In this document: piece by piece, positions 763 to 62,214 of the stretch
How positions within the stretch are numbered: position 1 is the stretch's first letter
Layout of the letters: every line of letters starts with the position of its first letter
DNA from: Geosiphon pyriformis uo1
Taxonomy: Eukaryota; Fungi; Glomeromycota
Assembly (NCBI GenBank): GCA_016748015.1
Contig: JAAOMT010000134.1
Coordinates: 130,757-194,756 of the forward strand
Direction of reading: 5' to 3'
Length of the DNA stretch: 64,000 nucleotides
The notes under the pieces: model-generated
Seen by the model: only the letters and a program-made list of their open reading frames with translations
Databases searched by the model: none
Told to the model about the DNA's origin: nothing
Program-made: the position numbers and the translations under genes

Positions 763-1398
763 ATGGAAATACCAGATCATATTCATGCCATAGCTCAACA
801 ATTATTTCAGGCCTTAAGTCAACAATTTTTTGACATGAAAATTATCATTAACAACCAAACAATTTGCTATCAAAACACCAAAAAAAAGACAAAAAATACA
901 CCATATTAGCAGTTACCAAAGAATGATAAAAACTGGTCAGACAATATAATAGAAAAAATAAAGAACACTTTTGGAAAAATACCTATTATGACGCCAACAA
1001 AAGAACTTACAAAAGAGAATTGGAAGCAATGAACAGAACAACTTCCAATATCATACTTTTACTATCAGTTAGATTAAAAGTTGAATATTCAGGAGTTGTA
1101 TATCAACAAATTCAAGAGAATATTCAACCAAAACATAATACAACAAATTAAAGAATTTATCAGAAAGAAAACAAATTCAACACTACATGTTAAAACAATG
1201 TACTGACTACACAACATATTTTGGAACAACCCAGAAATACTGTTACACTCTGAAATGGAAACCATAACCATTAACCAATAGGGAAGAATGAACAATACAC
1301 AAGTAGAAGGTGTGAGAAACAGAGTTGAACAAACAATACTTGAAAAAAAAGTATTAGAATTAATTCAAAATGAAGATTTCAACAGAGCTTAATATTAA
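763..1398 (+). pseudogene. ORF3 variant a (unknown function), element A
   Basis: Starts MEIPDHIHAIAQQLFQALSQQ, ends at the PPT; collinear with 12982-13617(-). Confidence 0.75.
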
Positions 1399-1411: not shown

Positions 1412-2293
1412 TATTACTCATAAAAAGAAAACAGATATAGAAAATAGTAGACCAATAAGAGAATAGTATTTAGTACATGAGCACATTGCTTAGCAATGTA
1501 GAGCAATATTAGAAATCATGGCACATTGCTCAGCAATGTGGAGCAATGTCAGAAAGCATAGCACATTACTTAGCAATATGAAACAATGTTAAAAAATTAG
1601 GGCACATTGTTCAGCAATGTGAGCATTGCTCAAGAAATCATAGCACATTGCTCAGGAATGTAAGCAATCTCATAGAACATCAATTATGTATATATAGTGG
1701 TAGCATTAGAAGTAAAAAGAGGAGAATCTCTAGTTAGAAATTTTCCATCCACAAATATTAAATAAATAAATCATCTACTATCCAAATTCACTTTCCATTA
1801 TCAACACTTTATGTTGATAGTAATTGATACTTAACTATGCTAGAACAATAGCTCTTGATCACAGCTATTGATGAGATATTAACTTGCACATTATCTTGGC
1901 TTATTTCTTTATTTTCTTTTATTTCTTTCTTTTTTTAATTTTTCTTGTTGAATACTAACTAATTAATGATTAAAATGCTGAGTAATTGACGTCATGGATA
2001 GCCTGGTAAAAGACCCAGAAATAAGAGTAAAATTATATATATATTAATGGATAGCTTACTAGAAGGGCATGAATGCCAGAATAAACTGGCCACTAAGCTG
2101 AAGACAGAAATTGGAAACACAACTTACCAACCAACTATTTCATCATTGAATCTCTGTTCATTATACAAAGAATTCCACTCTAAAAACCTTCAAATACAAC
2201 CAAAGTGCCAGTAATATTAGTATTGTCAAAATATTGAGCACCAAGTTACAGATTTGTTATTTGATTTGAGACTCCAAATAATTATCTGTAACA
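1412..2293 (+). repeat. 3' LTR of element A
   Basis: T(A)TTAC...GTAACA termini, TATA-like tatatata near 1689, R/U5 core shared with other family-1 LTRs. Confidence 0.9.
1481..1670 (+). repeat. U3 array of palindromes CACATTGCT-n-AGCAATGTG, five units at 40-41 bp spacing
   Basis: Units start at 1481, 1521, 1561, 1602, 1643; 1522-1540 has perfect 9-bp arms. Confidence 0.85.
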
Positions 2294-3868: not shown

Positions 3869-4498
3869 ATAGAAATTACTGATAACATCTACTCACTAAC
3901 ACAACAATTCTTTTAATTAATTCAATAACAGAAGATGAAAATTACAATCAATTAACAAATCATCAAATACAAAAATACCAGAAAAAGACTATAAGATAAA
4001 GTACAGAAAAAAACAGAAAACATTATTGAAAAAATAATTACAAAAGTGAAATTGGTGATAGAAGCACAGCCAAAAATTATCCAATATCCAGAGTTGACAA
4101 TAGAAACATGAAATTGGTAAACACAACAATTTCCAAAAAACTTTTGCTATTTCTACTTGGAACAACATCTGAATATTCAGAACTTATATACAGATAAAAC
4201 AAAATGATTATTTGATACAACAATACTACAACAACTAGAGAAATTTGTGGAAAAGAACAATCTAACAACACAAGCAAAAGCCATTTATCAATTACATACT
4301 GAATTTCAAGACCAATTCGAAATCTTACTTAATCCAGCAATGGACATTATTACCATTAACTAAATAGAAAAAATAACCAATATCCAATTTGAAGAATTAC
4401 AAAACAAGATAACTCAAATAATTTTTGAAAAAGAAGTTCAAGAAATACTCAAAGATGAAGAACTAGAATTAGAAGATTTTAATAAAGCTCAATATTAA
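3869..4498 (+). pseudogene. ORF3 variant b, element B
   Basis: Collinear with 34535-35182; ATG mutated to ATA; ends ...DFNKAQY* at the PPT. Confidence 0.75.
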
Positions 4499-12981: not shown

Positions 12982-13617
12982 TTAATATTGAGCTCTGTTG
13001 AAATCTTTATTTTGAATTAATTCCAGCACTTTTTTTTCAAGTATTGTTTGTTTGATTTTGTTTCTCATATCTTCTACTTATGTATTGTTTATTCTTCTTC
13101 ATTGGTTAATGGTTATGGTTTCCATGTCAAAGTATAACAGTATTTCTGGATAGTTCTGAAATATGTTGTGTAGTTAGTACATTGTTTTAACATGTAGTGT
13201 TAAATTTGTTTTCTTTTCAATAAATTCTTTAATTTGCTGTATTATGTCTTAGTTGAATATTCTTTTAGATTTGTTGATATATAACTCCTGAATATTCAAC
13301 TTTTGACCTAACTGGTAGTAGTAATATGATATTGGAAATTGTTTTGTCTATTGCTTCCAATTTTTTTTTGTAAGCTCTTCTGTTGGTGCCATAATAAGTA
13401 TTTTCCCAAAAGTGTTCTTTACTTTTTCTATTAAGTTATCTGTTCAATTTTTATTATTTTTTGGTGGCCACTAATATGGTGTATTCTTTGTTTTTCTTTG
13501 GATGTTTCAATAGCAAATTATTTGGTTATTAATAATAATTTCCATGTCTAACTGTTGTTAACTTAAGGCCTGGAACAATTGTTGGACTATAGTATGAATA
13601 TGATCTGGTATTTCCAT
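12982..13617 (-). pseudogene. ORF3 variant a, element E
   Basis: MEIPDHIHTIVQQLFQALSQQ ... DFNRAQY*; matches 763-1398. Confidence 0.75.
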
Positions 13618-14172: not shown

Positions 14173-15164
14173 TGTTACTGGAGGTTTTTGGTCTCTTTTC
14201 TTAAATGTTGTTGATGCCTGTTTGTTGTGAATTCACGTTTTCTGGATGTGATTGAACCTCTAATAACTGAATTTATCTTCAAATTATCTCCTATAATTTG
14301 AACTGCTGGGCTTATAAGTGGAATGGCCAATTCCTTGCCAGTTATTTTATGTAGTTACATTGTAGTAAACATCAACTCTTTCCCAAGAATTGCTTGTCTG
14401 GAAGCTTACTAAAATGTGTAGTTACTTTGCTGTGAAAGTCAACTCTTCTACAGGAATCTCATTTGTAGGCTACCTTAATGATTGTAATAAGAAAAGAAAA
14501 GAAAAATAAAAGAAATGTAAAAGAAATAGGATTTTATCAAGGGAAACGTTTTCTATTCAGGCCTGGAGTCACTAACAGTTTACTGAAATTGGTAGCTAAT
14601 CAATTTCGAAATGTTAGTTGGGTTTTGGGGATTTTTCAAGTACAATAATTAAATAATTTGGTTTTTTGAATTATTTGATATTTATTTCTTTTTGTGTGTA
14701 TAGGAATGGTTTTAAGAGATAAATCTAAAGTAAAATACATTTTCCAGAAGAGAAAAGCTCTTCTTTTATACAACTTGTTGTAGTACTAGTCTATAAACTT
14801 GCACTTTTTCTCTTTGCTCAAATTTCGGCAAAACTAAAGATACATTTTGATGAACTACAAGTTATTTTGCTGAACTATTGATTAATTTGGGTGAACTATT
14901 CATAATTTCGGCGAATTTCTTATAAATTTTGGCGAATTTCTGTAAATTTTGGCAAATTTTTGAATATTACAAAGTTCAGAGTATTGTGTAATTTGATCAT
15001 CCTACTTTCTCTTATATTAATTAAATTATTTTAATTGAATCGTGATATGTGATAATTGATTAAATAATAAATGATAATTTGAAATGATATTAATATATTA
15101 ATAAATTATAGGAATTATAAGGGTAATTTCATGCTAATTAATAGCTAAAATTCTACTGGTAACA
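14173..15164 (-). repeat. 3' LTR of F (992 bp)
   Basis: Direct repeat of 23078-24048. Confidence 0.95.
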
Positions 15165-15852
15165 TAATCTGCTCTTCAAGACTGAGCTCTGTCGAAGTCC
15201 AAGCACTATCTGTAATATTGAGATAGTGATCTAAAATAATTGAAGTAATCTGGTCTGAAAATTGTTGAAATTTCAGTTCTGTAAGTTTGCCAATGTATTG
15301 GACTTTCATTGGTTGCAGTATTGGATTTTGTAGAACATTTTCACAAGTATTAAACAAGTCATAGAGTCTAAGAGCTGCTCTAAGTTTGTAGCAAGTGTTT
15401 GTTGGTCCAGCTGCTATTTTGAATTCATTGTGGATTTGTTTTTGTATAACTTTAGGAGTGAGATTTGTTGCTTCAAGTTCCAGTTTTCATTCATAAAGTG
15501 TTTTTCCAATTTGAAAGTATTTATAAATAGGGGTGTGTTCATTGTTCTGTTTATTAAGAAGTAGTAGAAGTTTTTGTTGCATTGTAGCATTTGGTGGAAT
15601 GTCCATAGGGGCAATTAAAAGATTTTCTTCTAGTGCCTGTTTCAAAAGTCTTGGTAATCTATTCTCAGAGTAACTTCTTGTTTTTCTTTTATAGGGGTGA
15701 TAGTTCTGTAAATGATTTGCTACTAAGGCTGTGATTTCTTTCTGAATGTAATTAATTTGACTTCCATTAATCATTATAGATAAGTCAGGAAGTGTTTTCA
15801 AGGCTAACATTAATTTTTGGGATATTTGTTGAATATTTCGGGGAATAATCAT
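15145..15852 (-). pseudogene. ORF3 variant c, element F (interrupted)
   Basis: Track ORFs 15487-15852 and 15145-15357 match the open ORF 48327-49034; the stop lies inside the LTR. Confidence 0.8.
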
Positions 15853-25914: not shown

Positions 25915-26747
25915 TATTACTTATAGAAATATAAGAAATATAGTAGCATGATTATTAGCCAATCAAAAGTAGACATAGTAAATGTGGAATTACAGAATTC
26001 TCACACAAGGAATTGCAGGATTCCAGAATTGCAGGATTCTTCTCAAAGGAATTGCAAGATTCCAGGAATTCCAAGATTCCTGTCATGAAAAATCGAGAAA
26101 TTAAGAAATCTCAATTATGTATATATAGTAGTAGTGTTAGAAGCTAAAAAGACAGATCTCTCAGTTTAGATTTGATCTAAGCAACCTTCCAGTTCCTAAT
26201 TATCAAATAAATAATTATTTTATATCTCAATCCACTTTCCACTATCAACACTTTATGTTAATAGTAATTAATACTTAACCACACTGAAACAATAGCTCTT
26301 GATCACAGCTATTGACGAGATACTAACTTACCAAATTGCCTTGGCTTATTTTCATCATTGTTATTTTCTTTATTTTATTTTCTTTCTTTCTTTGATTTTG
26401 TTGTGCATACTAATTGATTGAGGATTAAAAGCACTGAATTATTGACATTACGGATAGTCTGGTAAAAGACCCAGAAATAAGAGTGATTTATATATATTAT
26501 CAGTTAGCTTACCAGAAGGACATGACTGCCAGAATAAATCCAGACACCAAGCTAAAAAAGAAATTGGGAAAACAACTGACAACAAATGACGAATTGCTGC
26601 ATTATAGAATCTCTGTCCATTATATAAAAGACTCTATCAAAACCTTCAGATACAACACTTTCAGAATATCATCAACAGAAACAACTTTTGAGCACCAAGT
26701 TACAGGTTTGTTATTTGACTTGAGACTCCAAATATTCAATCATAACA
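25915..26747 (+). repeat. 5' LTR of G
   Basis: tattac...cataaca followed by tttggtgctctttgtaag. Confidence 0.9.
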
Positions 26748-34534: not shown

Positions 34535-35182
34535 ATGGAGATTACTAATAACATCTACTTACTAGCACAACAACTATTCAAACTGATTCAACAACAGAAT
34601 ATAGAAATTACTATCAATCAACAAACCTTTCAATACCGAAATACCAGAAAGATACCCAAATATGAAAATAAAAAGAAAACAGAAAACACCATTGACAAAA
34701 TGGTTCTAAAAATAAAATTAGCAATTAAGGAACCAACAAGTGTCACCACATATCAAGAGTTGACCAAAGAAACATGGAAATGGTGGATACACGAATTTCC
34801 AAAAAACTTCTGTTACTTCCACTTGGGATGACACTTGAACATTCAAAACTTATATATAGATAAAACAAAACAATTATTCAACACAGCAATACTGCAACAA
34901 CTAGAACAATTTATGGGAAAGAACAATTTGACCACACAAGCAAGAGCCATCTATTGGCTACATATGGGATTTCAAGACAGACTGGAAATCTTACTCAATT
35001 TGGAATTGGACTCCATTACAATTAACCAAATGGGAAAAATAACCAACACCCAATTTGAAGAATTGCAGAATCAGATAGCTCAAATAATTCTTGAAAGAGA
35101 AGTTCAAGAAATACTCAACGACAAAAAATTAGAGTTAAGAAATTTAAGAGATTTGAGAGATCTTGATGGAGCTCAATATTAA
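34535..35182 (+). pseudogene. ORF3 variant b, element G (one internal TGA)
   Basis: Track ORFs 34448-34831 and 34835-35182 are in one frame; MEITNNIYLLAQQLF...DLDGAQY*. Confidence 0.8.
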
Positions 35183-35195
35183 AAGGAGGGAATAA

Positions 35196-36053
35196 TGTTA
35201 CTCATAGAATATAGAAAATATATTAGCACATGAAATAGCCAATCAGAGGTAGCTATAATAAATGTGGAATTCCAGGATTCCTCTCAAGAGGAATTTCAGG
35301 ATTCTCCGGGTGAGGAATCACAGGATTCCAGAATTCCAGGATTTCTCTCAAAAAAAATTGCAGAATTCCAGGAATTCCAGGATTTCTGAGGTGAAGAATT
35401 GAGGAATTAAGGAATCTCAATTATGTATATATAGCAGTAGTGTTAGAAGTAGAAAAGGCAAAATCTTTAGTTAGAAAATCTCTCCGTTTAGATTTTATCT
35501 AAGCAACTTTCCAAATCACAAATATTAATAAATAATTATTCACTATCTCAATCCACTCTCTACTATCAACACTTCATGTTGATAGTAATTGATACTTAAC
35601 CACACTAGAACAATAGCTCTTGATCACAGCTATTGACAGGATACTAACTTGCAATTGCTTTTTGTTAATTTCTTTATCTTCTTTTATTTTCTATATTTTT
35701 TTTGTTATTTCTTTGGTTTTACTAAAATTGATTAAAGATTAAGCGCTGAGATACAGACATTATAGGAACTAGTAAAAAACCTGTGAAACAAGGATAGAAC
35801 ACTCATAGATTTGAAGATAGCTTACCAGAAAGATTACCGGCCACCATGCTGAGAAAGAAATTTGACAAAACTGTGGTTTCAGAAAGCTATGAATAAAACC
35901 ATCAATTAAATCTCTGTCTATTATACAAAGGACTCAACTCTAAAAATCTTCGGATACAACCAACGTACTAGTGTCACCATTCTTGTCAAGATATTGAGCA
36001 CCAAGTTATGGATTTGTTATTTGATTTAAGACTCCAAATAATCATCTGTAACA
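35196..36053 (+). repeat. 3' LTR of G
   Basis: tgttac...gtaaca; GGAATTCCAGG array at about 35265-35415. Confidence 0.92.
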
Positions 36054-39000
36054 GTGGCTATCTTCAAGACTCTCTTGTTACTTAGTTCTCACAAGAAACT
36101 GATACTGGTGCTTACCAAAGAATCATTAGATGGACACCAACAAATGCTGGAGAAAAAAACACCTCTTTCACAACCCAGTTTGAAACTAAATTTAAAACTC
36201 TCATTTTAATCTCAAAATGGCATATGAAATTAGAAAAAAAAACTCAAGACTCTGGTGAAGTTGTGACTGAATATGCCAAAGCCATTAGAAAACTAATTAA
36301 ACAAGTAGACTCTAAAAAAAACTGGACAGAAAAACAGAAAATTCATTCCTTTACAAAAAGATTGAAAACTGATCTCTCATATGCTTTTTGGCTCTGAAAA
36401 ACAATCTCACAATAAATATGGCCATTGAACTAACCCAACAAATTGAAAACAATTAAAGAATGCATCTGAGATCCACACTTCTAGTTTTTGCTCCTGCTTC
36501 TGTTATGGCCTCTGCTCCTCAAATGGCTGCTACCTTTTTTGCTGCCTAAATTCAAAACCCAAATAAACAATTGATAGACAGACTTACAGTTAATTTTGTC
36601 TGGTTACTGGAATCTTTAATCTAAGCAGTCAGAGATAATTAGCAACCACAAAGAACCAGATTTGAGTTCTATTTTAATCAGCCTTAGCAACCCCCTTATC
36701 AAAGACAGCAAAATCATGGCCCACTTGTATGCTATTGCTGTGAATTGACTGGACACTTTTTTAGAGATTGCAACAATCTTCCATTGCCTCTTTCAGTTCC
36801 TAAAAACAATAACAATTAAAACAACAGAACTATCAACAACAATATTCCCAATCAAAGATCCAATTATGCCAACATCAATTTCTTTGGAAAAAATTCCCTA
36901 GTTGAAGCTACTGTTTATCAGTTTTTAAACTGATAGGCACACCTCCAAAGGGTGAAAGTGCAAGCCAACCAGAAAAAAACCCTTTTTATGCCTTTAACCT
37001 AACTAATAATGACCATGATATGGATAAACTGGCAATTAACACTTCTGACTTAACAAAAAAAAAGAAAAAAACCAAAGTTAATTTCATTTTAGATCCCAAC
37101 AAAGCCTCAACTTTTACTGCTAATAACAATAAGCCACCAAAGATTAAAGTTTTTAAGAATTCTCCAAAGTTGGAACCACTAAAAATTGTACAAAAATCTG
37201 GACCCTATTCTGTTGTTAAAGATCTCATAGAAACCCCAGCATATATTACATTTGGCCAACTAATGACTCATCTACAGTTTAGAAAAGATTTTTACAAATT
37301 ATTGATACCAAAAAAAAAACACCAAAGACTAACAAATGCCTCTGCCAAGCTGGACTTGCTAACAACAGCAATATTACTTCTTTAATTTGCAAAGCCCAAG
37401 TAGCTGGTTACTTTATTGATCTAATTTTAGACAGTAGATCATTTATTAGCATCATAGCCAAACATTTTTTTGAAGCAATTGGCAGAAAAATTAATGAATT
37501 TTCAACTAGACCAATAATTAATATACATAATAACAAAAAAAAAGATCTAAACATAGCCAAAGCTGTTTCTGTTTACATCAATGGTATCAGCATTGAAACT
37601 GACATAGAAGTATCTAAAGCAAAAAAGTACACCATAATTGTTGGCAATAAGTGGCTCAAGAAAGCCAAAGTATTACTTGACTATAAACTTTGTAAGCTAA
37701 CCATTAGATGTGGTAAAAAGCCTATTGTGATTAAGTACCATCATTGGACAACTCCCCCAGTATTCAAGCAAAACCAAGAAGAAAAACAATCAGATGAATC
37801 AAATAATAATGAGAGTAATGATGAAGAAGATCAAAAAGAACAAAAAGAAACTACTGAACTCACCTATACTATTTTCACCAGCAATAACAAGCCACTGAAC
37901 AATATTAAAGCTGATAAAGAAAAAATCATGGTAAATGGCAAGTTGATCTGCTGGCCCTATTATGATATTCTTAGAAGAATCTTTAATGAAAAACCTGGCA
38001 AGAAAGCCAAATACAGTTATTGATAATATAGTTCTTGTGCCAGATGCTGGTGCAATAAACTTTTGTATTCTTCTAATGATAAATGCAAGTCCTGTCTAAT
38101 TTATTACAAAGATTGGAAGTCAATTAGTTTGATACCCAGAAAAGAACTAAAAAAAATACAGAAGTCCTTTGAGAATGAACCACCTGAAATCCAATCACTA
38201 GTTGTAGAACAAAAAAAATCTTCTTCTAAAGAAAAAAAAATGGACATTGAAAACTTGTTGGCTAGAAATAGCCCAGTTATTTCAAAAAAAGGTGACACTC
38301 CTGGATGAACTCATGTGATACAACACACTATTACCACAAAAGAAACTCATTCTATCTATTTAAAGCCTTATCAATTCAATTAACAAAATGATGAATTCAT
38401 CAAGAAAGAGATAAACTGAATGAAAAATCTTAGATTTATACAAGAAACCAATAGTAAATAGGCTTTTCCAGTTGTAGTGATATCCAAGAAAGATAGAACT
38501 CTATGCTTCTGTGTTAATTACTGCCAATTAAATGCCATCACTATAAGAGACATATATTCACTCTCCAAATTGATGCAATGCTAAATAAATTCAATAATGC
38601 TGCTTTCTTCTTAACTATTAACTTAATTGCTGAATTCTGACAAGTAGAAATGGATCTAGAAAGCAGAAAAAAAACTGTTTTCATTACCAAGTATGGCACT
38701 TATGAATTTACAGTTATGCCTTTTGGTCTTATCAATACCCTTCTCATCTTTCAATGCCTAATGGACAAAGTGTTTGAATCAGTAAAAAAAAACTTTATTC
38801 TGGTTTACTTAGACAATATAATAATATATTCAAAAACCTGAGATAAACATTTTGAACACTTGCAAAAAGTTTTTGACCTGCTCAGAAATGCTGGCCTCAA
38901 AATCAACCCAATTAAATCTTTCTTTGAACATTAATTTATTCAGTTTCTTGGTTATCTTATTACAAAAGATAGAATCTTTTCTGATCCAGCTAAAATTGAA

Positions 39001-39612
39001 AAAGTCCAGAACATTAGACAACCAATGAATGTTTCTGAACTATATTCTTTCCTTGGTTTGGCTTCTTACTATCACAAATTTATTAAAGATTTCTCCAAAA
39101 TTGCCTTCCCTCTTAATCAGCTACTCAGGAAAAATGTCAAATACCATTGGGGCACTTATCAACAAAAAGCTTTCAAAATTTTAAAAGAAAAACTTGTTAC
39201 TGAACCAATCCTTAAGCAACCTAATTTGGACCAACTTTTTATCCTTTACACTGATATATCTGACTATGGACTTGGTACTGTTTTCTCACAAAAAAATGAA
39301 AATAGCAGGGAACATGCTATAGCATATGCCAATAGATCCTTTACACCAGCAAAAAAGAACTATTCAATAACTAAACAAGAATGCTTAGTAGTAGTTTGGA
39401 CTACTAATTACTGGAATCAATATCTTTTTGGTGTGAAATTCTTAGTGTTAACAGATCATTAAGTCTTGGTTTGGCTGTACAATAAAAAAAAGCTGGAACA
39501 CAAACAAATAACTCACTAGATACTTCATTTGAATAAATTTGACTATAATATTCAATACTACAAAAGAGCAAATCATCAAAATGTTGATGTTCTTTTTAGA
39601 TTTACTATTTAG
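36054..39612 (+). pseudogene. Gag-PR-RT-RNase H (element H), heavily decayed
   Basis: VMPFGL, LVYLDN, FLGLASYY, LYTDISDYGLG, KQECL, LTDH. Confidence 0.85.
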
Positions 39613-39680
39613 TAATAGTACAAGCTTCTTCAACCAACCCACCTTAATTATTAGTAACTCTCCTTTTGACAAACATAATA

Positions 39681-40129
39681 ATAGACTTGGACAACTACTC
39701 TGTCTTAATAGAATTTTTAGGTAAAAGACAATACTTACCAGAATACACTTAACAACAAAGAGAACATTTGTGTAAACAATCAAATTTCTATTTAATCCAC
39801 CAGAACTAATTATATAAAAGAAACAAAAAAGATTCTGACTGTCTTCAGAGAGTCATCAAATTTAAAAAAAGAAAAATTGTAATATACAACATATACACTA
39901 ACCCATTAGCTAGACACTTTGAAAAAACAAAAACAATTCAAAAAACTTTAGCTCACTATTATTGGCCTACCTTAAGAAAGAACATTGCTAAATACATCAA
40001 AACCTGTAACATCTGCCAAAAAAGAGGCAAACCCAATTGCAAAAAAGATATTCATTCAATTTCTGTTGGTTAATTATTTAACAGAATTGGTATAGATATT
40101 GTTAAATCTTTAACAATAATTCTTGATGG
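39681..40129 (+). pseudogene. Integrase 5' part (element H)
   Basis: YYWPTL, TCNICQ, RIGIDIV. Confidence 0.8.
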
Positions 40130-41100
40130 TGTTACCAGTAGAATTTTAGCTATTAATTAGCATGAAATCACCCTTATAATTTCTATAATTAATTAATATA
40201 TTAATATCATTTCAAATTATCATTTATTATTTAATCAATTATCACATATCACAATTCAATTAAAATAATTTAATTAGTATAACAGAAAGTAAGATGATCA
40301 AATTATACAATACTCTGAACTTTGTAATATTCAAAAATTCGTCGAAATTTACAGAAATTCGCCGAAATTATGAATAGTTCACCCAAATTAATCAATAGTT
40401 CAGTGAAATAACTTGTAGTTTATCAAAATATATCTTTAATTTGCTGAAATTTGAGCAAAGAAAAAAAGTGCAAGTTCATAGACTAGTACTACAACAAGTT
40501 GTATAAAAGAAGAGCTTTTCTCTTCAAAAAAATGTATCTTACTTTAGATTTATCACTTAAAACCATTCCTACATACACAAAAAGAAATAAATATCAAATA
40601 ATTCGAAAAACCAAATTCTTTAATTATTGCACTTGGAAAATCCTCAAAACCCAACTAACATTTTGAAATTGATTAGCTACCAATTTCAGTAAACTGTTAG
40701 TGACTTCAGGCCTGAATAGAAAACGCTTCCCTTGATAAAATCCTATTTCTTTTACATTTTTTTTATTTTTCTTTTCTTTTCTTATTACAATCATTAGAGT
40801 AGCCTACAGACAAGATTTCTGTAGAAGAGTTGACTTTTACAGCAAAGTAACTACACATTTTTAATGAGCTTTCAGACAAGCAATTCCTGGGAAAGAGTTG
40901 ACATTTACTACAACATAATTACATAAAGTAACTGGCAAGGAATTGGCCATTCTACTTATAAGCCCAGCAGTTCAAATTATAGGAGATAATTTGAAAATAA
41001 ATTCAGTTACTGGAGGTTCAACTACTTCCTGAAAACGTGAATTCACAGCAAATCAACATTACCAACATTTAAGAAAAGAGACCAAAAACCTCTAGTAACA
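40130..41100 (+). repeat. 5' LTR of I (971 bp)
   Basis: tgttacc...gtaaca followed by PBS tttggtgctctcccatgg (41101-41118). Confidence 0.95.
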
Positions 41101-41145
41101 TTTGGTGCTCTCCCATGGAAATAACACAGCAACAACAAATTCAAA

Positions 41146-44100
41146 ATGGTGACCACACCAGACACAGCAACTCTAGAGTATTACCAGTCAATTTACACCC
41201 ACTGCAAGCAAAGATTCAACATTCCAGAAGGAATTGAAGTTGTTAAGAAATCAGTATATTAATACATTAAAAACTGCATCAACAATTATCTTTTTGGAAA
41301 CTACAACATTTCAGAAGTTAGAAGCAATCTCTACAATAATTTGGTGCAATATTCACAATTGGGAACAGAAGACCTGAACAGTGAAACACTTGCTACTTAC
41401 TTCCAAGAACTTAATTTTAACATTATTGAGTATTGTTAAGAAAAATATCCAGTACAGTCTAAATACTCTTTTGACTTTGAATCAGAGACAGAAACAAGCA
41501 ACAAAGGCAAACAAAGATTGAAACAATACTCAAAAACCACTCCAAACACTTCAACACTACAAAAGACACTTGCCAAACACTTGCAAACACCTGAACAAGG
41601 AACTAGTGTCAAATTACTACTTTCTATTACACCATTTCCAATTTCACTTGTTTAACCACAAACACCAAATTCATCACTCAACCACTTCTCCAGACCAGAA
41701 GACTTTCAGTTACCTAGAAACTCTACTCAACAGCAGGAACCAATATCAACAAGTGCCAATATCATTAATTACTTACAGGAAAACGAAAGTAATCATTCAG
41801 AAAGCTTGAAAAGTGAAGAAATTGAATTAAAACCAGAAAAAATTACAGAAAATGAAAAAGAAATGGCAACTGCTTACATTGCAAAAATCCCAGAATTCAC
41901 TGGTGAAGACAATGATACCAGTCCTCAAGAATGGCTTGACAAAGTTCAAAAAGCAGGAAATGCAAATGGTTAGATCACAGCAAGAATGCTCAAAGCAATT
42001 CCCTACTTTTTCCAAGGAACAGCAGAAAAATGGTTTGAAAATTTAGAAGAACCATTTGAAAACTGGCAAGCATTCAAAGATGCTTTTCTACAACAATTCA
42101 CTGACAACAATATCTCTATCACTCTCAGAAACCACTTTTGCAATATTAAACAAGAAACATCTGAAACTGTTATAACCTATCTTGGAAGATTTAACAAACT
42201 TCTCAGACGAATCCAACAATTGGAAACCAATGACTATTATTCTGATGCTCAAGTTCTGGATCAGTTTATAGCAGGGTTAAAAGACAAACTGATTAAAAAA
42301 GTCCGTTCACATGCTCCAGCAGACTTAACAACTGCTATTAGACATGCAAAGAGCTATGAAATGGCAATGAAAGAAGTAAATCACACCAAGCTTGTAAACC
42401 TTGCAATTGGAGAAACCAGCTCAGCAGCTGAAGAGAAGATAGACCAACTCACAAAAAAAGTTGAAAGCTACTTTACAAACCAACAACAACAGCAACAACA
42501 ACCACAAAAATATCAACCTCCACAATAATGCAACCAAAACAATTTTGGATCACCATCCAACAACCAATCTCAAAATTGTCATTATTGTGGAATTCCAGGA
42601 CACTGAAAACGAGATTGTAGAAAATTACAAAGAGACCAACAAAACAGGAGTAATCAACGTTAATCTTCACCATAACAATCCTATTATCAATCTCTATCAC
42701 CAACCTATTATTCACCAAGACCAGCTCCACAACCAATGCAGCAACAATATCAGCAACCTTTACCAATTCAGCCATATCAGACACCACCTACTCAACAATA
42801 TCAAGTACCAGCAAGAAGATTGGTTCAACATAACCAATTCACACCCCAAAATCAATTGCAGAGTAACCACAACAGAATCAATCTAAATAACCAGTTGGTT
42901 CCCCAAAATTCTGGTCAGCAAAGACCCAATTACTATTATACTCAATCCAGTTATCTTACAATACCAGAGGAATCAGATTTTCAACAAACTGCACTTTCTG
43001 AAGGTGAAGTTGTAGCACCAAAATCAAACTCTTCCAACCACACCATTCCACCAGCTCAAATTGCCCAAAATACCAATCTGTCAGATATATTTCCATTTGA
43101 ATTTGAAGCAAATAAATCACTATTTCTGCTTAGTAATGCAGCAGTCAATGAACAGAAAGCAATTACTGTTATGTACACAGAAGCTACAGTAGAAAAAAAA
43201 CCCATTCGCTTAATCTTAAATAGTAGATCAGCTGAAAGTATCATCACTTACCAGCTAATGCAACAACTCAAACGAAATGTAGACAGACCAGCTCAAACAG
43301 TTATTGTTATAGCTGATGGTATGAAGAAGACTCCAGTAGAAAAAATTGATGATTTCCCCTTTACAATTGATGGAATTACCATTTCAGTTAAAGTTCTTAT
43401 TATGGATGCACCCCAATATCAAGCTCTAGTTAGAAATAATTGGCTTTTCAAGGCCAATGCAAACCTGAACTGGGAAACTCAAGAACTTAAAATCTTATAC
43501 CAAGGACAATATATCATAGTACCTGCAACTTGTGGTACCTTTAACAAATGATCAGAAAAAGCTTCAGTATTTGAATTTAAAGAAGAGAAAGAAATACCAC
43601 TCACTGAAACCTACATGGCTTTTGGATTACCATCCAATTAGGCTGAGGAAACAGAACAAAAGATTTTTGAAGAATTAAGGAGATAGAAGAAAGTTAGATA
43701 TTTCACACCAGAACCATGAAAAGAACCACCATACATTCCACTAAAATGCAAAGATTGCAAAAAGAAGCTTTCATCTATGGGAGCCTGTATTTCCCCAGAA
43801 GAGGAATACAAAACTCACACTTGTTACTTCTGCAAGGCATGCCATAGAGAACGATTTGGATCTCCAAAGAGAAATGGAAAATGAGACAAAACTCTTTGCC
43901 TCACATATGGAGAAATGCTACCAGAAGAATGCAATTGGATTAATGTAGCAATGAGATGAAGAGTATATAATCAAACCTGTCAATATGCTCTATCAATTTC
44001 GGAAAAAGTCAGATGAGGAACACTATTTGATGTAACATACAACAGTGCTCTCAATAAACTTTACCACTACTCTCATGATGCTGAAATGATTTTTGACCTA

Positions 44101-46743
44101 GCAATGGCATTGATCAATAGAGCCACCCAAGAAGATGTCTGCCAAATGAAAGAAGCTGAATATATTGAGTATACTATGGAATTAGCTGGATTTGATTATG
44201 AAGATGAAATAGAAACCTACCACCAAATTGCAAGCCACACATATCCAACCAAAAAAGCTCAAATTCAACGATTAGAGCAAATAAACATTCAATTGTGTAA
44301 AGAATGTATTATGCCTTGTGATGACCAATGGTGTTTAGAATGTTATGCTCTTAGCATTCCTCTGCCAGATGAGAATGATGAAAATAAAATCGAATTTGGA
44401 GTATTTGAACTAGTAAAAAAACTACCAACTGCTCCTATCTATCTTCTTGAAAAGCAACCACCTCTACAACTTAAATATTTTGACAACCATGGCCAAGGAA
44501 TTAGACCAGAAAAAGCACACGAAATTGATGCTGGATATGACCTAAGATACCCAGGAAAAGATACTTTGATTCACCAACCAAAGTCCTTGACAAAAATCAA
44601 TCTCAAAATTGCTCTTGAAATTCCACCAGGAGCAATGGTTCAAATTGCCTTCAGATCATTATTGGCAAGCAAAGGAATCAATATTAGAGAAGGAGTTATA
44701 GATGCAGGATATACTGGAGACATTACCATCATGTTACAGAACAAGACAGACAAACCATTCAAAATTGAACATGCTGAAAAAATTGCTCAAGCAATTTACT
44801 TACTCTTAATCAACATTTCGGGATTACAATCAGTAAACAACAGAGAACAATTGGGAAAAAATAAAAGAAGAACTCAAAGTTTTGGTTCAACTGGACGATT
44901 TACAGTTCCAGTAAACATAGCTCTTAATACACAAAATGAATCTCACCAGATTCTTCAACTTCCTCAGCCAATTACCATTTCACCTTTTGGAGAACATTAC
45001 GAAATTTATATTTGCTCAAAACCCACCACTACACAACAAATTTTTGAATCCAATAAACAAATCTGTTTGAAGCATAAAATCTCAATTCCAAACGTTTATA
45101 TTCCCAAAGGAATGAAAAAATGTCAAGTTACATTCTACAACCTCAATAATTATCCTATTGTTTTATTAAACAAACTAAAGATTGGAATCATACACAGTAA
45201 TATTTTTCAAGATGAAAACCCTCAAATTGTCTCTAATTTCATCGAAATTGTAAAGCACACTCTACTCCCAAATCCAAATATCATTCCCACTACTGAAAAC
45301 TACTACTTTTTGGAAGAAAAACTCTCTCAAATCAACATGGGTCTCTTAGAACCTCAACAACAAAGACAATTGAAACAATTGATAGCTGAATTTGCAGATA
45401 TATTTGCAAAAAACAACAATGACTTGGGAAAAACAGACATTGTTTAACATCAGATCCATACAGGAAATGCTCCACCAAAATGTCAACAAGCCTATCGAGT
45501 GCCACCTGCCAGCCACCAATTCATCAGAGAAGAGGTCCAAAGAATGCTCAATAATGGATTGATTCAACCATCAAGAAGTTCTTGGGCCTCACCAGTAGTT
45601 TTAGTTAAAAAGAAAAACGGAAAAATCAGATTCTGTGTTGATTATAGACAACTGAATAGTGTTACAATTGGAGATGCCTATCCTCTTTCAAAAATTGATG
45701 ACATGCTAGATGCTCTAGGAAAAGCCAAGTTCTTCTCAACTTTAGACTTGGAAAGTGGATACTGGCAAGTCGAAATGAACCCAAAAAACCAATCCAAAAC
45801 AGCATTCACCACCCAAGGAGGAAACTATGAGTTCAATGTTATGTCTTTTGAACTCTGCAATGTACCAGCAACATTCCAACAACTCATGGATGTTGTATAT
45901 AAAGAACTCTTATGGCAATCAGTAGTTGTTTACCTTGATGACACTGATGTATACTCACCAAGCTTTGAAGCCTATCTTATTTATCTGCAAGAAGTTTTTC
46001 AATGATTACAGAAAGCAAGATTGAAGTTGAATATTAAAAAATATCACTTTGAAAAAACAAGCTTAATCTTTCTTGAACACATTGTTAGCAAAAATGGAGT
46101 CAAACCAAACCTTGGAACAATTAGTGCTGTTAAAAACTTCTAAACCCCAAAAAATACCACAGAGCTATGAGAATTTGTAGGATTAGCCTTCTATTATCAA
46201 AAATTCATCAAAGGATTCTTAGAAATTGCCAAACCACTCAATTATCTCACCAATAAAAATGTGCCATACAAATAGACTGAAAAACAACAAAAAGCATTTG
46301 AAACTCTTAAAACAAAGCTGACAACAGCCCCAGTTCTTGCTTACTCAGACTTCAACAAATGATTTCAACTAGCCACTGATGTTTCACACATAGTATTTGG
46401 TACCATCTTATCACAAGTAGATGAAAATAGGCAAGAACAATTTATTGCTTATGCTAGTAGAACACTCAAACCAACAGAACTAAAATATGGCTCAACTGAA
46501 TTAGAAGCTGCCACAGTTATTTGGGCTCTTAAACATTTTCAACAATATCTGAAGAATAGAAAAGAATTTGACATAATAACAGACAACATTGGCCTCAAAT
46601 GGCTCAATAAAAAGAAAACTGAACAAAATGCCAAACAGTCTTAATGGAATGACTTCCTAGCAGACTACAGATATATTGTACACTACAAACCAGGAAAACT
46701 ACATACCAATGTTAATAGCCTCTCAAGAATAAGACAAGATTAA
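41146..46743 (+). pseudogene. Gag-PR-Cys-rich-dUTPase-RT-RNase H polyprotein (element I), single frame
   Basis: Track ORFs at 41986, 42736, 44086 and 45499 share one frame; AGYDL/GVIDAGYTG dUTPase; VVYLDD. Confidence 0.93.
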
Positions 46744-46800
46744 TACCAACAACAATTTTATCACAACTTACCAATCTACCAACAAAATAACCAAACAAAA

Positions 46801-48182
46801 ATGGATCCCAGAAATTACAGCAATCTTAAAAATTATTTGGAGACTCTTACCATACCAGAAAACTGGTCTCCAAGTGAAAAACATCATTTACAACACCAAT
46901 CAAAACAATATTTCATACACCAGAACAAAATCTATTATAAAAATCACAAAAACTCAAACCAACCACTCAGATTAGTACAAAAGAATGAAAAAGAAACAAT
47001 TTTATACAACATGTACACAGATCCGTCTTCAGCACACTTGGGAAGAGATGGAACAATTCAAAGAATTCTTGAACATTATTTTTGGCCTCACATGTAAAAA
47101 GACATTCGACAATATGTAGAATTTTGTAATAGTTGTCAAAAAAGAAGAGGAACTTGTCCCACAGAACCTTTAAATCTAATCAAAGTTGGACAATCTTTTG
47201 ACAGAGTTGGAATTGATTTAGTCGGACCATTACCTATCACAACCCAAGGAAATTGTTATATTGCAGTTGTAGTGGATTATTTTACCAAATGGCCTGAAGC
47301 TAGAGCCATCCAAAGAGCAGATGCAAAATCAGCAAATTTTATCTATGAAGACATTATCTGTAGACATAGATGCCCAATTGAACTCTTATCTGATCAAGAA
47401 ACACATTTTGTGAACAACTTGATATAAGAAATTTGTGAACAATTCAATGTCAAAAGACCTCTATCATCACCTTATCACTCTCAAATAAATAGACTTGTAG
47501 AACGTTTCAACAGAACATTGTGTAAATCTCTAGCCAAAGTCTCAACAGACTTTGAGCAGGAATAGAATATCTTTATTCCATCAATGTTACTAACATACAG
47601 AACACTAAAACAAGATACTACGAAACACACACCATTTGATCTTACTTATGGAAGAACAACAACATTACCAATTAATTTCATAGTAGAAACATACCCAGTA
47701 CAACCAATTAATGAAGAAAACTTTCAAGAAACACTCCAAAGAAAAGCCTACACTCTTCTTAGTACACTGAAAGAAAAAAAAAGAATAGCAGCAACTCATA
47801 TTGAACATTCCCAAGCTCAACAAAAAGAAAGACATGACAACAAATTACCAACTATTACCAATGAATTTAAAGTTGGAAATAAAGTTTTCTTACACAGAAC
47901 TAAGGCTGAAAAACAATGGAGTGGGAAATTTGAAAACAAATGGGATGGACCATTTTATATTTACGAAATTCTAGGCAATAAATCATACAAGTTAAGACTT
48001 GATAACAAAATATTAGCAAAAGTTGCACATGGAGACAGATTGAAACACTATCATTTCAGAAACAATCCTGAACTATTAATTCCACAAATTGGTACACATT
48101 CCCTTTAATTAATCCTGAAGATATTCCCCGAAATTTAGAACCAATAATTATAATAGAACAACAACCAAATTTGAATACTTAA
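46801..48182 (+). pseudogene. Integrase (element I)
   Basis: Same as F; frameshift near 48103 in the tail. Confidence 0.92.
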
Positions 48183-48326
48183 ATTTTACAATAATTCTCC
48201 AATAAAAACACAAAGACAAAAATAGTAAATAAATTACAAAAACACCCAAACCCAAAAACAAATAAAAACCCCATATCCCAAAAATAATTTTCTTATTCTC
48301 TCTTTTCATAATTAGTCAATTTTATC

Positions 48327-49034
48327 ATGATTATTCCTCAAAATATTCAACAAATATCCCAAAAGTTAATGTTAGCCTTAAAAACACTTCTTGACTTATC
48401 TATAACGATTAATGAAAGTCAAATTAATTACATTCAGAAAGAAACCACAGCCCTAGTAGCAAATCATTCACAGAACTATCACTTCTATAGAAAAAAAACA
48501 AGAAGTCACTCTGAAAATAGGTTACCAAGACTTTTGAAGCAAGCACTAGAAGAAAATCTTTTAATTGCCCCTATTGACATTCTATCAAATGCTACAATGC
48601 AACAAAAACTTCTACTATTTCTCAATGAACAGAACAATGAACACATCCTTATCTATAAATACTTTCACATTGGAAAGACACTTTATAAACGAAAACTAAA
48701 ACTTGAAGCAACAAATCTCACTCCTAAAGTTATACAAAAACAAATCCACAATGAATTCAAAACAGCAGCTGGACCAACAAACACTCACTACAAACTTAAA
48801 ACAGCTTTTAAACTCTATGATTTGTTTAATACTTGTGAAAATGTTCTACAAAATTCAATACTGCAACCAATGAAAGTCCAATACATTGGCAAACTCACAA
48901 AACTGAAATTTCAACAATTTTCAGACCAGATTACTTCAATTATTTTAGATCACTATCTCAATATTACAGATAGTGCTTGGACTTCAACAGAGCTCAGTTT
49001 TGAGGAGAAGATTATATTACCAGTAGAATTTTAG
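48327..49034 (+). CDS. ORF3 variant c, 235 aa, open; unknown function
   Basis: Uninterrupted ORF between integrase and LTR, conserved in F, motif-level similarity to ORF3 of families 1 and 3. Confidence 0.75.
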   Translation: MIIPQNIQQISQKLMLALKTLLDLSITINESQINYIQKETTALVANHSQNYHFYRKKTRSHSENRLPRLLKQALEENLLIAPIDILSNATMQQKLLLFLNEQNNEHILIYKYFHIGKTLYKRKLKLEATNLTPKVIQKQIHNEFKTAAGPTNTHYKLKTAFKLYDLFNTCENVLQNSILQPMKVQYIGKLTKLKFQQFSDQITSIILDHYLNITDSAWTSTELSFEEKIILPVEF

Positions 49035-50006
49035 CTATTAATTAGCATGAAATTACCCTTATAATTTCTATAATTAATTAGTATATTAATATCATTTCAA
49101 ATTATCATTTATTATTTAATCAATTATCACATATTATAATTCAATCAAAATAATTTAATTAGTATAACAGAAAGTAGGATGATCAAATTATACAATACTC
49201 TGAACTTTGTAATATTCAAAAATTTGCCAAAATTTACAGAAATTCGCCAAAATTTATAAGAAATTCGCCGAAATTATGAATAGTTCACCCAAATTAATCA
49301 ATAGTTCAGCGAAATAACTTGTAATTCATCAAAATGTATCTTTAATTCGCTGAAATTTGAGCAAAGAAAAAAAGTGCAAGTTCATAGACTAGTACTACAA
49401 CAAGTTGTATAAAAGAAGAGCTTTTTTCTTCAAGAAAATGTATCTTACTTTAGATTTATTACTTAGAACCATTCCTACATACACAAAAAGAAATAAATAT
49501 CAAATAATTTGAAAAACCAAATTCTTTAATTATTGCACTTAGAAAATTCTCAAAACCCAACTAACGTTTTGAAATTGATTAGCTACTAATTTCAGTAAAC
49601 TGTTAGTGATTCCAGGTCTGGATAGAAAATGCTTCCCTTGATAAAATCCTATTTCTTTTACATTTTTTTTATTTTTCTTTTCTTTTCTTATTACAATCAT
49701 TAGAGTAGTCTACAGACAAGATTTCTGTAGAAAAGTTGACTTTCACAGCAAAGTAACTACATATTTTTAGTGAGCTTCTAGATAAGCAATTCCTGGGAAA
49801 GAGTTGATGTTTACTACAATGTAATTACATAAAGTAACTGGCAAGGAATTGGCCATTCTACTTATAAGCCCAGCAGTTCAAATTATAGAAGATAATTTGA
49901 AGATAAATTCAGTTACTGGTGGTTCAACTACTTCCTGAGAACGTGAATTTACAGCAAATCAACATTACTAACATTTAAGAAAAGAGACCAAAAACCTCTA
50001 GTAAAA
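49015..50006 (+). repeat. 3' LTR of I (992 bp)
   Basis: Direct repeat of 40130-41100 plus one extra 21-bp unit. Confidence 0.95.
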
Positions 50007-50860
50007 ATGGCAATAGATACATTATCACAGTTATCAACTATCTTACAAAGTAAGTAAAAGCAAGAGCCACCCCAAACCAAACAGCAGTCTCAATAGCCAA
50101 TTTTATTTATAAAGATATTATTTGTTATTATAACTGCTCCAAAGAACTTTTATTTGATAAAGAAAGAGCTTTTCTCAGTACACTGATTGAAAAACTTTGT
50201 AAAAAAATGGGAATACATCACAAACTTTTCTTTCCTTACCACCTTCAAACAAATGGTCTAGTGGAATATTTTAATAAAACACTATGTGAAACCTTAGCCA
50301 AAACCAGTAAAGAAACAAACTTATAAAACAAAGTGCTGTCTTTAGCTTTGTTTACTTATAGAACTGTGAATTATAACATAACAAGTTATGAATTTTTTTA
50401 TCTGCTTTATAGACACATAGCAATACTACCAATAAAAACTAACATTAAGACAATACATTTTAAAAAGATCACAATAGGAAATTACAAAGACATTTTGCAA
50501 AAAAAACTTGGTATTATTCTTGACTTCTTGGTAGAAGCATAAATAATTGCTTTTGAAAAGATAAAACAGTTCCAAAAAAAGCTTAAAAAAAAAACTTATA
50601 AAACACTTTTTTTAAGTATTGATGACTTGGTATTGGAATATTGTTCAGACAGAGACAATGTCTATAGTAATAAATTTTCTAGTTAGTGAAAAAAATCTTT
50701 TATAGTCAACAAAGTTTTGAATAATAGTTTTTATATTCTTTAAGATCAATTTAAAACAATCTTTAATGATCATTTTGTTCATAATACACGATTCAAGAAA
50801 TATTATAAACAACCTAATTGGTTGTTTGTTATAATAATACTGATCTAAATGATCAGCAAA
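50007..50860 (+). pseudogene. Integrase 3' part (element H)
   Basis: GNRYIITVINYLTK, YHLQTNGLVEYFNKTLC. Confidence 0.8.
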
Positions 50861-51000
50861 AATCAAGTATAAATAAATGCACCATTCCCAAAACAGAGGT
50901 ATCTTCAATCAACATGAATAATTATTTTCTAAATCAAAACATTTAAAACATCTTTTATACTTTCAATGAATATTGGATCAAAAACTATTCAAATGCTACT

Positions 51001-51570
51001 TTGACTATTGAAAAACAAACCACTATAACTGATAACAATAAAATACATACTGTTATTAAACCAAAAAAAACCACTACCAAAAGAGAAAAAATTGGTAGCA
51101 AAATAGATAAATATCTATTAGAAAGTATAATAGCAGCTATACTTTCATCTTCTAACACAATTGAAAAAACAATTCAAAAAATCTTGCCCATAAACAAAAA
51201 TTTGTTATATGGAAGGCAATTAGAACTCTATGATTGTCTTGGAGAAATTATAAAGGATATGAAATTCATGAAGAAAACAACTTCAGAGATACAGACAGAA
51301 ATTTTGGGCATTATACAGTTAGATGTCCCAAGAGTTTTAACTATTGCTAAAAGAACCAAAACTCTAATACAAAAATTTGGTCTCTTGAATACAAAACTCA
51401 TTTCACTTCAAGTATTATATACCCTATCCACAAAAAACTTCAACAAACTAATTAGTTTTGAGTTAGATAAAACTTTTCAAATAGATTATATCATGAATAG
51501 CTTGATTTTGCTGAAGCTCAATCTCTTTGAAGAGAATGATATTATGGTTGAAACCTATACTTCTTATTAA
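51001..51570 (+). pseudogene. ORF3 variant d, element H (true start probably upstream, about 50877)
   Basis: 189-aa open frame between integrase and LTR with YDCLG, AKRTKTL and ISLQVLYTLSTKNFNKL blocks. Confidence 0.6.
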
Positions 51571-57395: not shown

Positions 57396-57537
57396 TATTT
57401 TTTTATTTTATTAAAGCATTTTAACAAATATAGCCCAATCACTATCTAATACATAGAACCAAACTAAGTGGTTCAAACTAAATGCAATTTACACATTTTC
57501 TACATATGGCTAGCCACTTAGGCCAGACAAGGCAACA

Positions 57538-60500: not shown

Positions 60501-62214
60501 TGGCTTAGGAATCATTGAAACCCAAGCTCTTTTCCACAGAGTGGGCATCTTACCAACAATCAAACATGTATTCAACAGCACCAACAGGTATTTTAATACC
60601 TTTTCACCATTATGTTTTTATAATTCATTGAGAATGCCTGACAAACCAGCTGCTTTGCCATCAGGCAGACTATTAATAACCAGGACCAATTTACTTATGT
60701 TAATTGCACACATCACACCAAAGAAGGCATCATCTCTAACATAGCCCAATAGTACATACTGGCTTGTCCATCGATCAGACAGCGCCAGAAGCACCAAACA
60801 TTTTCTCATCCAGCCTTTCATGATTTTATTCACACCTAACTTTACCTTCTCCAGTTCCAAAATCAAACCATCATCTATCACCAAGTAGTCCAATACCATC
60901 TTGTGAAACAGATGATCCAAAACACTCCTAATTATGCCATTCTTGTCCAGACAGAACCTCTTTATGCGCTTTTTGATCACATTCCTAATTGATATCTCCT
61001 CAGCCAACTTTGATTCATACATCTTGGATTTCCTATATTTGCCCTTGACAAGAGACAAATGCTTGAGAATGTCCATCTGTTTCTTATCAGTCTGAACCAT
61101 GCAAGTAACAACAAGAGCCTTATTAGCATCCAACACTGACCATTTTTTTATAAGAAAATTGAAGCCAAAGATGTCAGCCAAACCCAATTTTTTGACAATT
61201 TTTGCAACCAGCAACTCAAGCCCCAAAAATTTAGAGGACTGTTCATTTTTCAAACACTGAAAATTGCTGAACCAATGTTTAGAAAAAATTTTATTTGCAG
61301 ATTCTACCACCATCCCTTCTAAAACTGACTACATCAAGTCTAGATTATTATTCACAGTAGTCACAAAAAACCTATTCTTTGTTTCCAAAAGTCTGGCAGA
61401 AAAACAATCTCTATAATATAACCACTTGGCATTATCTGCATCCTTGATTTTAAACTTCCAATGGTTCCTGTTAACCTGTTTCCACAAGCTATTTAACTAA
61501 ACGTCTAAGAGCCCACTTAACCCAATAGACACCATAATAGAATTATGATTAGTATTAAGAAATCCGAAACAGAAGTGATCTTGTGACCAGCCACTGCTGA
61601 CAACAGACACCCACTCACAAAGATATAATCAATAACTTTCATGACTCCCCTTGAGTTGTCCCAAGTGGGAGCATTGACTAATGAATGTCCCCCAAAATTG
61701 TAGAGACTATTAACTAATGCATTAACTAAGCCAAAATCCACACATTTATTAAAGCTAGAGCTATGTTTGTTCTCATCCTCATTAAAATTACCACTTAATA
61801 TAACAAAAGTACTCTTATTACAAGCCCTGGCTATAAAAGAGTTAACGAGACCAGCCTAAATTGTACGTACAAACCCAACACAAAGACGGATTACTTGTTT
61901 TTGAATAGTAAACAAACCATTAAGAGCCTACCCGGAATCTCAGAAATTTTTGAAACATGCTTGGCTAAATTTTCATTCATAATTAAAGTGACACCTGCAC
62001 CTAAAAACCCAACATCCAGACCTGAAGTAAACACTTTTACACCAGAAAACTTATTCGCAATCCAAGACTTGATACTGGAGCAAAGCTTAATCTCAGTAAC
62101 TATTGAAATATCATTATTTGAAACCATATACCACCTAATAATGTTATCCTGTTTAGCAAAAACATTCATACCTCTAATGTTACAAGTAGCAATCTTCCAG
62201 ACTAAACTACTTAT
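57538..62214 (-). pseudogene. LINE ORF2: APE endonuclease-RT-RNase H-CCHC finger
   Basis: IATCNIRG, GNFN, IDYIF; RPIALIET, QGEVFSP, AFVDDT; VYTDGS...AELQAV...YLDS; (W)LLCGEVELPNHAFTC. Confidence 0.92.

Follow-up and report, generated by a model that had tools for sequence, protein, structure and literature searches.

A selected third open reading frame in Ty3/Gypsy elements of Geosiphon pyriformis and its pairing with type-specific repeat arrays of the long terminal repeats

Third open reading frames (ORFs) that do not encode envelope (Env) proteins are already known in long terminal repeat (LTR) retrotransposons. Passages of PMC5408684 describe them in the bdelloid rotifer elements Juno, Vesta and TelKA, and passages of PMC7264820 describe additional ORFs (aORFs) between pol and the 3′ LTR of plant elements, env-like in Athila and Bagy2 and also present in Grande (gene23) and Retand. 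The present analysis concerns a third frame, ORF3, of Ty3/Gypsy elements in a 64,000-nucleotide stretch of the genome of the fungus Geosiphon pyriformis uo1 (contig JAAOMT010000134.1, positions 130,757 to 194,756), hereafter called the window. This accessory gene is real, selected and unnamed; a new observation is that each ORF3 type is accompanied by its own, often palindromic, array of repeats, located 5′ of the TATA box in the LTR.

According to the consulted parts of PMC5408684, the rotifer elements likewise have a separate third ORF, a dUTPase between protease and reverse transcriptase (RT) and family-specific variety of ORF3, with some products of 210–230 residues; however, the rotifer products are GDSL esterases, DEDDy exonucleases, coiled-coil or transmembrane proteins, whereas the protein described here matches none of these in Pfam and lacks a membrane segment. 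The same arrangement of the dUTPase is already known from fungal elements, as passages of PMC2864245 indicate. The plant aORFs occupy the same position and are conserved in most copies, and a regulatory nuclear role has been proposed for some of them (PMC7264820, in part), but there the sense aORFs are env-like and encode membrane segments, and those assigned to the nucleus lie in antisense orientation, unlike the sense, predicted soluble, fungal ORF3. No sequence link between ORF3 and the plant aORFs was found, although no search was aimed at it. The literature searched describes no such ORF3 (supplements, repeat libraries, Repbase/GyDB and the G. pyriformis genome paper lay outside its scope), and the consulted passages of PMC11952901 and 10.1101/2021.03.30.436303 do not mention it.

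The initial annotation of the window placed a third ORF between integrase and the polypurine tract in seven elements, and a tblastn-based survey agrees with that count: seven Ty3/Gypsy copies have a frame of 209–235 codons between integrase and the 3′ LTR, three inside the span 34535–51570, to which the annotation was attached, and four outside it. The labels used here follow the order of coordinates and may differ from the earlier letters. H and E represent the H-type, F and B the F-type, A and C the A-type and I the I-type.

763..1398, forward strand: A-type ORF3, copy A; several stops
3869..4498, forward strand: F-type ORF3, copy B; several stops
12982..13617, reverse strand: A-type ORF3, copy C; several stops
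15145..15852, reverse strand: H-type ORF3, copy E; a single stop within the frame, 86% identity to P0001
34535..35182, forward strand: F-type ORF3, copy F; 215 codons, internal TGA at 34829, further in-frame ATG at 34505
48327..49034, forward strand: H-type ORF3, copy H (P0001); intact, 235 residues, extending across the purine tract and into the 3′ LTR
50914..51570, forward strand: I-type ORF3; 218 codons, stop at codon 11, entering the LTR start at about 51540

Only one of the seven copies, H, is open from ATG to stop (48327–49034), and in the I copy 207 codons without a stop follow the one at codon 11. Given the local composition, frames of this length would stay open by chance with a probability of about 2e-8 (235 codons) or 9e-9 (207 codons), and the other two frames across ORF3 contain 15–22 stops. 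The peptides quoted in the initial annotation are present in the ORF3 translations, and its description of the end of the frame is also correct: ORF3 of A, B, C and F stops just 5′ of the purine tract, and the frames of E, H, I and the metagenome contig L001, described below, run into the LTR. A DNA motif containing GAGCTCA lies just before the purine tract in all lineages and in L001 (3092–3120) and is read in different frames; the similarity of the C-terminal tails derives from this motif and does not count as evidence at the protein level.

Sequence comparisons indicate real homology between the H-type and F/A-type ORF3s: within the window, tblastn relates the H-type to the F-type with E-values of 2.5e-4 to 6e-4, and hhalign aligns their profiles across 183 columns (E 1.7e-5). 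The integrases of the H/E and F/B/A/C groups are 51–58% identical, that of the I element is 30–37% identical to those of the other elements, and ORF3 diverges about twice as fast as integrase (24–26% versus 51% identity between H and F; about 30% versus 58% between H and L001). Database queries with the H-type and the I-type returned 193 and 128 homologues, and for each query 120 out of 120 among the matches listed were G. pyriformis hypothetical proteins, as were all 100 named homologues of the F-type. The protein P0123 equals the window F copy save for a 16-residue gap around the stop of the latter and one residue at the gap. A search of 1.84 billion representatives with a combined H- and F-type profile gave 111 matches; ten of them were looked up, and these comprised seven more Geosiphon models, including two further ORF3 types, and three unnamed metagenomic proteins (P0376, E 1.8e-21; P0377, E 1.9e-20; P0426, E 2.4e-4). 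In a small blastp set, P0377 matched the H-type with E-values of 2e-15 to 4.5e-17 and the F-type with 5e-15. Its contig, L001, encodes RT, RNase H and integrase, followed by a 316-nucleotide gap with stops, an intact ORF3 and then the purine tract and LTR start seen in the window; the integrase is 49–58% identical to those of A–H and 35% identical to that of the I element. The metagenomic relatives and the layout of L001 therefore place the ORF3 family in more than one element lineage, and the family probably reaches beyond one host. Among 431 fetched proteins, 56 also contain an integrase piece, located upstream of ORF3 in 54 of the 56 and mostly of the matching family, which supports a recurrence of the integrase–ORF3 linkage elsewhere in the G. 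pyriformis genome.

The relationship of the I-type to the other types is less clear. None of six local profile comparisons by hhalign was significant (E 0.17–0.62), and none of 39 I-type proteins produced a signal with the combined H- and F-type profile. A global alignment was colinear over 199 columns, with a score equalled by 4 of 30 block shuffles. A broad profile scored the I-type proteins at 6.0 bits on average (maximum 14.8; 95th and 99th percentiles of block shuffles, 2.9 and 6.4), and 18 of 22 copies exceeded the 95th percentile, but these copies are near-identical and the reverse test was negative (0 of 8). The sequence evidence for homology of the I-type is suggestive only, and we lean somewhat towards it. 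The earlier proposal of one ORF3 common to three divergent Gypsy families is borne out for the H/E and F/B/A/C groups and the metagenomic relatives (E 1.7e-5; P0377, E ≤5e-15), but not for the I lineage (E 0.17–0.62).

Purifying selection acted on ORF3 in the F/A lineage. Nei–Gojobori estimates of the ratio of non-synonymous to synonymous rates (dN/dS), made on the window copies, were 0.17–0.27 for the ORF3 frame between F/B and A/C (upper bootstrap bounds 0.37–0.44), as compared with 0.58–1.43 in the other frames; these values are rough, since dS is near saturation (1.5–2.4), and the four pairs share ancestry and hence are not independent. Within subfamilies, the ratio was 0.30 for F–B and 0.31 for A–C, with integrase controls at 0.26–0.63. 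Between subfamilies, gap lengths in the ORF3 alignment are divisible by three in 18 of 19 cases, compared with 2 of 12 for the LTR control. The H–E ratio of 0.55 (confidence interval 0.30–1.04) is indistinguishable from the LTR controls (0.45–0.78), where transition bias depresses dN/dS even in non-coding DNA; 47 of the 50 differences between H and E are transitions. The comparison between subfamilies, proposed with the initial annotation as a check on neutrality, thus excludes neutral evolution for F/B versus A/C; the H–E pair lies within the control range.

The initial annotation regarded the product as lacking a signal peptide or transmembrane stretch, and the hydropathy scan, for which no dedicated signal-peptide predictor was run, agrees, finding no membrane segment: the 19-residue Kyte–Doolittle maximum is below 1.6 in 45/45 H-type, 19/19 F-type and 4/4 metagenomic proteins and reaches a borderline 1.6–1.79 in 4 of 23 I-type proteins. 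The N-terminus is not hydrophobic, the median number of cysteines is 0–2, and the Geosiphon proteins are basic (median isoelectric point, pI, 9.1–9.3). None of 23 aligned members had a significant match in Pfam (best E 0.0073), PHROGs gave no match beyond E 0.0012 and PDB sequences no significant match, in line with the earlier statement that no named family could be assigned. An AlphaFold2 model made with a diverse 23-sequence alignment (mean predicted local distance difference test score, pLDDT, 73; predicted template modelling score, pTM, 0.62) contains an all-helical core, with pLDDT 80–94 over residues 81–210. The predicted core helices include 108–127, 133–148 and 153–167, where N152 and K/R at positions 158 and 162 are conserved; an N-terminal helix and β-hairpin are predicted with low confidence, and residues 39–62 form a predicted disordered basic linker. 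The predicted product is a soluble protein with a helical core at approximately residues 85–210.

A weak local resemblance, about 45–115 residues long from a Y-x-I-G motif, links ORF3 to DUF1016_N, the YhcG N-terminal domain (PF17761), which may contain a helix-turn-helix. Sub-threshold matches occurred in one register in two of ten proteins (E 0.05 and 0.12), hhalign gave E 0.064, and language-model features placed DUF1016_N, DUF3102 and DUF6192 at 0.83–0.86. DUF1016_N differs in being prokaryotic and fused to a PD-(D/E)XK nuclease domain, which ORF3 does not have. These leads are weak, as are those to closterovirus coat protein and RegA considered below, and none is accepted as the identity of ORF3.

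The second line of evidence comes from the unique 3′ (U3) part of the LTRs, where the type-specific arrays of two ORF3 types are as follows.

1457..1679, forward strand: A/C-type U3 array of ACATTGC-N3-GCAATGT palindromes, from CCAAT to TATA
35244..35416, forward strand: F/B-type U3 repeat array, GAATTCCAGGA-like, partly palindromic

The A/C and B/F LTRs have the CCAAT box, the TATA block and the downstream sequence in common; the H/E LTRs contain a third palindrome, AAATTCGCCGAAATT, and those of I and L001 have short repeats of their own (top 8-mer four times each) without a palindrome excess. The 8-mer ACATTGCT has 15 matches in A, 7 in C and none in the other nine LTR starts, and GAATTCCA occurs 8, 8 and 8 times in the B/F LTRs and 0–2 times elsewhere. 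When the 5′ LTR of F is counted as F-type, the CCAAT–TATA segment is 76–84% identical within an ORF3 type (4/4 pairs) and 52–61% between types (6/6 pairs), and the next 200 bases are 72–84% identical in 10/10 pairs irrespective of type. Between A and F, nucleotide identity is 79–82% in integrase, 54–64% in ORF3, 43–60% in early U3 and 83% in two later LTR blocks, the low early U3 value being due to the different repeats that A/C and B/F carry between CCAAT and TATA; B and F are 70–87% identical throughout. The first 488 bases of the F 3′ LTR contain 14 overlapping palindrome windows, a count reached by none of 100 shuffles, and a palindrome excess is clear in five of 11 LTR starts (A3, B3, F3, H5 and E5; reached by 0, 0, 0, 0 and 1 of 100 shuffles, respectively), with E3, the count of which was reached by 2 of 100, as a possible sixth.

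The product of this selected, separate third gene perhaps binds the array of its own LTR and thereby activates or de-silences its own family, an interpretation which we hold tentatively and at somewhat less than even chances. The protein would be expressed from a subgenomic RNA, either spliced or transcribed from an internal promoter, would enter the nucleus and would bind the U3 array of its own family; once bound, it might raise or protect transcription, with activation, anti-silencing and repression all conceivable, and protein and array would drift together. Besides the pairing itself, the predicted helices with the conserved N152 and K/R positions, the basic pI of the Geosiphon proteins and, weakly, the sub-threshold DUF1016_N matches speak for such a role. 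A broader version, in which ORF3 would be a new helical DNA-binding family with variants co-evolved with family-specific palindromic U3 operators and spanning lineages with about 35% identical integrases, is doubtful. Two systems offer functional analogues only. In foamy viruses, the Tas gene adjoins the 3′ LTR. According to passages of PMC3798896, Tas binds response elements in its own promoters and so is an element-encoded transactivator, as ORF3 might be by analogy; foamy viruses differ in being retroviruses with env, and no sequence or fold match to ORF3 was found. The targets of VANC, the anti-silencing protein of the Arabidopsis VANDAL elements, are tandem repeats that differ between related transposons, and related VANC proteins act on different spectra of transposable elements (TEs), as far as described in the consulted parts of PMC5735166; VANDAL is a plant DNA transposon, and no homology of VANC to ORF3 was found.

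Several results weigh against DNA binding by ORF3 and its co-evolution with the arrays. The metagenomic relatives are acidic (median pI 5.6), Foldseek gave no matches at E ≤0.001 against PDB and viral models and thus no match to a DNA-binding protein, the DUF1016_N match scored 12.9–14.1 bits, far below the family cut-off of 32.8, and a global profile alignment to that domain did not succeed; the top family-named language-model match was closterovirus coat protein, not a DNA-binding family. The palindrome test used overlapping windows and a crude shuffle, and by it the excess is marginal in C3 (6 of 100 shuffles) and H3 (9 of 100) and absent from the F 5′ LTR, the I LTR and L001 (78, 66 and 29 of 100). 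U3 repeat arrays are commonly enhancers for host factors. A single split, A/C versus B/F, and five LTRs underlie the pairing, and, as ORF3 lies next to U3 on the genomic RNA, one template switch would move both without any binding.

Adjacency is also the only way in which the pairing would be accounted for if ORF3 were an RNA-binding or particle-associated protein acting on element RNA in the cytoplasm, in packaging, as a chaperone or in translational control. Such a role, to which the basic, helical character of the Geosiphon proteins would be suited, is unlikely; language-model matches of two divergent queries to closterovirus coat protein (0.92 and 0.91) and to a RegA-type translation repressor (0.88) point to it, but they are weak (150 and 138 shared features of 256, below the mark of 170, and recognition scores below 2300), and Foldseek did not find the coat-protein fold in PDB or viral models. 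It is quite unlikely that ORF3 is an integrase partner or occasional C-terminal extension which replaces a chromodomain in nuclear entry of complementary DNA or target choice, since its divergence follows U3 and not integrase. In its favour, ORF3 of A (about 700–765) and C (13680–13617, reverse strand) starts in the reading frame of the integrase tail. The codon 63 nucleotides before this ATG terminates the frame in A and encodes an amino acid in C; the remaining stops between the two genes are not the same in A as in C and look like CpG decay. Pfam reported no chromodomain at the integrase end of H. However, the two genes are out of frame in F and B and separated by spacers with stops in H/E (about 220 nucleotides) and L001 (316 nucleotides), and the junctions of fused integrase–ORF3 gene models vary, like spliced predictions. 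A role in countering host defence through protein contacts, for example as a suppressor of RNA interference or methylation, without sequence-specific DNA binding, would be consistent with the roughly twofold faster evolution of ORF3 relative to integrase, the CpG depletion of the window (observed/expected ratio 0.14), the predominance of transitions between H and E (47/50) and the TE methylation and small RNAs reported in passages on another arbuscular mycorrhizal fungus (10.1101/2021.03.30.436303). We consider it improbable: no known suppressor was found to be similar, accessory genes commonly change fast and the type-specific arrays would be left unaccounted for.

That ORF3 is a degenerate Env or another membrane or infectivity protein is very improbable, despite its env position and sense orientation and the hydropathy of 1.6–1.79 in four of 23 I-type proteins. 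None of the 68 H-type, F-type and metagenomic proteins has a window of at least 1.6, cysteines are few (median 0–2), the N-terminus is non-hydrophobic and no Env match appeared in Pfam, PDB or viral folds, which upholds the initial view that the product is not an errantivirus-type Env; for the H- and F-types, Env is largely refuted by the low hydropathy together with the absence of a fusion-glycoprotein match in Pfam, PDB sequences and Foldseek searches of PDB and viral models. A non-functional captured or chance sequence is hardly credible. Six of the seven copies are broken and the H–E dN/dS of 0.55 lies within the LTR control range, but the between-subfamily values (0.17–0.27), the gap lengths (18/19 multiples of three versus 2/12) and the intact orthologous frame at the same place in L001 refute this explanation, the first two for the F/A lineage.

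The surrounding DNA is a nest of decayed Ty3/Gypsy elements with 31% GC. The window elements have the order gag, protease, RT, RNase H, integrase, and LTR pairs, TG...CA ends, a purine tract and target duplications were all found, as expected of Ty3/Gypsy. The features of element H, of the split element that owns the I-type ORF3 and of the 3′ end of element F are as follows.

40130..41100, forward strand: element H 5′ LTR; H/E-type palindromes at 40335–40369
41974..48108, forward strand: element H, decayed gag, protease, dUTPase (44506–44895), RT, RNase H and integrase
49015..50006, forward strand: element H 3′ LTR; 93% identical to the 5′ LTR
37283..40129, forward strand: 5′ part of pol (protease, RT, RNase H, N-terminal half of integrase) of the owner of the I-type ORF3
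50007..50780, forward strand: C-terminal half of that integrase, continuing 39696–40129 beyond the H insertion
35183..35195, forward strand: element F polypurine tract, directly 3′ of the ORF3 stop
35196..36051, forward strand: element F 3′ LTR; CCAAT at about 35239, TATA block from about 35417

Element H has all its parts, from the 5′ LTR through gag, protease, dUTPase, RT, RNase H, integrase and ORF3 to the 3′ LTR, and is flanked by the 4-bp target duplication ATGG, with one LTR end decayed to AA. Element E (24048–14173, reverse strand) is 92% identical to H, flanked by the 4-bp duplication GAGG and inserted in element C. A primer-binding-site-like sequence starting TTTGGTGCTCTCCC directly follows the 5′ LTR of H (41101–41118), and the same is seen in E. 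Reference integrase residues 14–164 map to 39696–40154 and residues 151–306 to 49988–50452; the integrase halves lie on either side of H, and therefore the pol at 37283–40129 and the I-type ORF3 at 50914–51570 belong to one element split by H. The dUTPase was found between protease and RT in E (19260–19649, reverse strand), F (30776–31165) and H (44506–44895), and not in the pol of the I-type element. The LTRs around element F (25915–26738 and 35196–36051) are only 71% identical, and F is probably a chimera or very old. Elsewhere, a GC-richer decayed element at 57500–64000 (reverse strand), with a weak RNase H match (E 2.3e-5), looks by eye like a non-LTR retroelement, and an approximately 86-nucleotide tandem unit occurs in six degenerate copies at 7137–7735.

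Many G. pyriformis gene models, such as P0344, P0345, P0359, P0361, P0367 and P0381, fuse parts of ORF3 to gag, protease or other frames of retroelements. The annotation therefore overcounts host genes: hundreds of G. pyriformis hypothetical proteins (at least 340 among the matches listed) are transposon ORF3 copies or chimeras. Even without a mechanism, ORF3 represents a protein family that has been selected, has no name and lacks a close counterpart among solved folds. If the proposed self-regulation is true, it would bring self-activation like that of Tas and VANC into LTR retrotransposons and provide a compact natural set of protein–operator pairs with differing specificities. LTR sequences make up 41.2% of the G. 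pyriformis genome, according to passages of PMC11952901. ORF3 would then be a candidate driver of the Geosiphon LTR expansion, and, if the main families each encode a self-specific activator or anti-silencer, there would be a testable reason for it.

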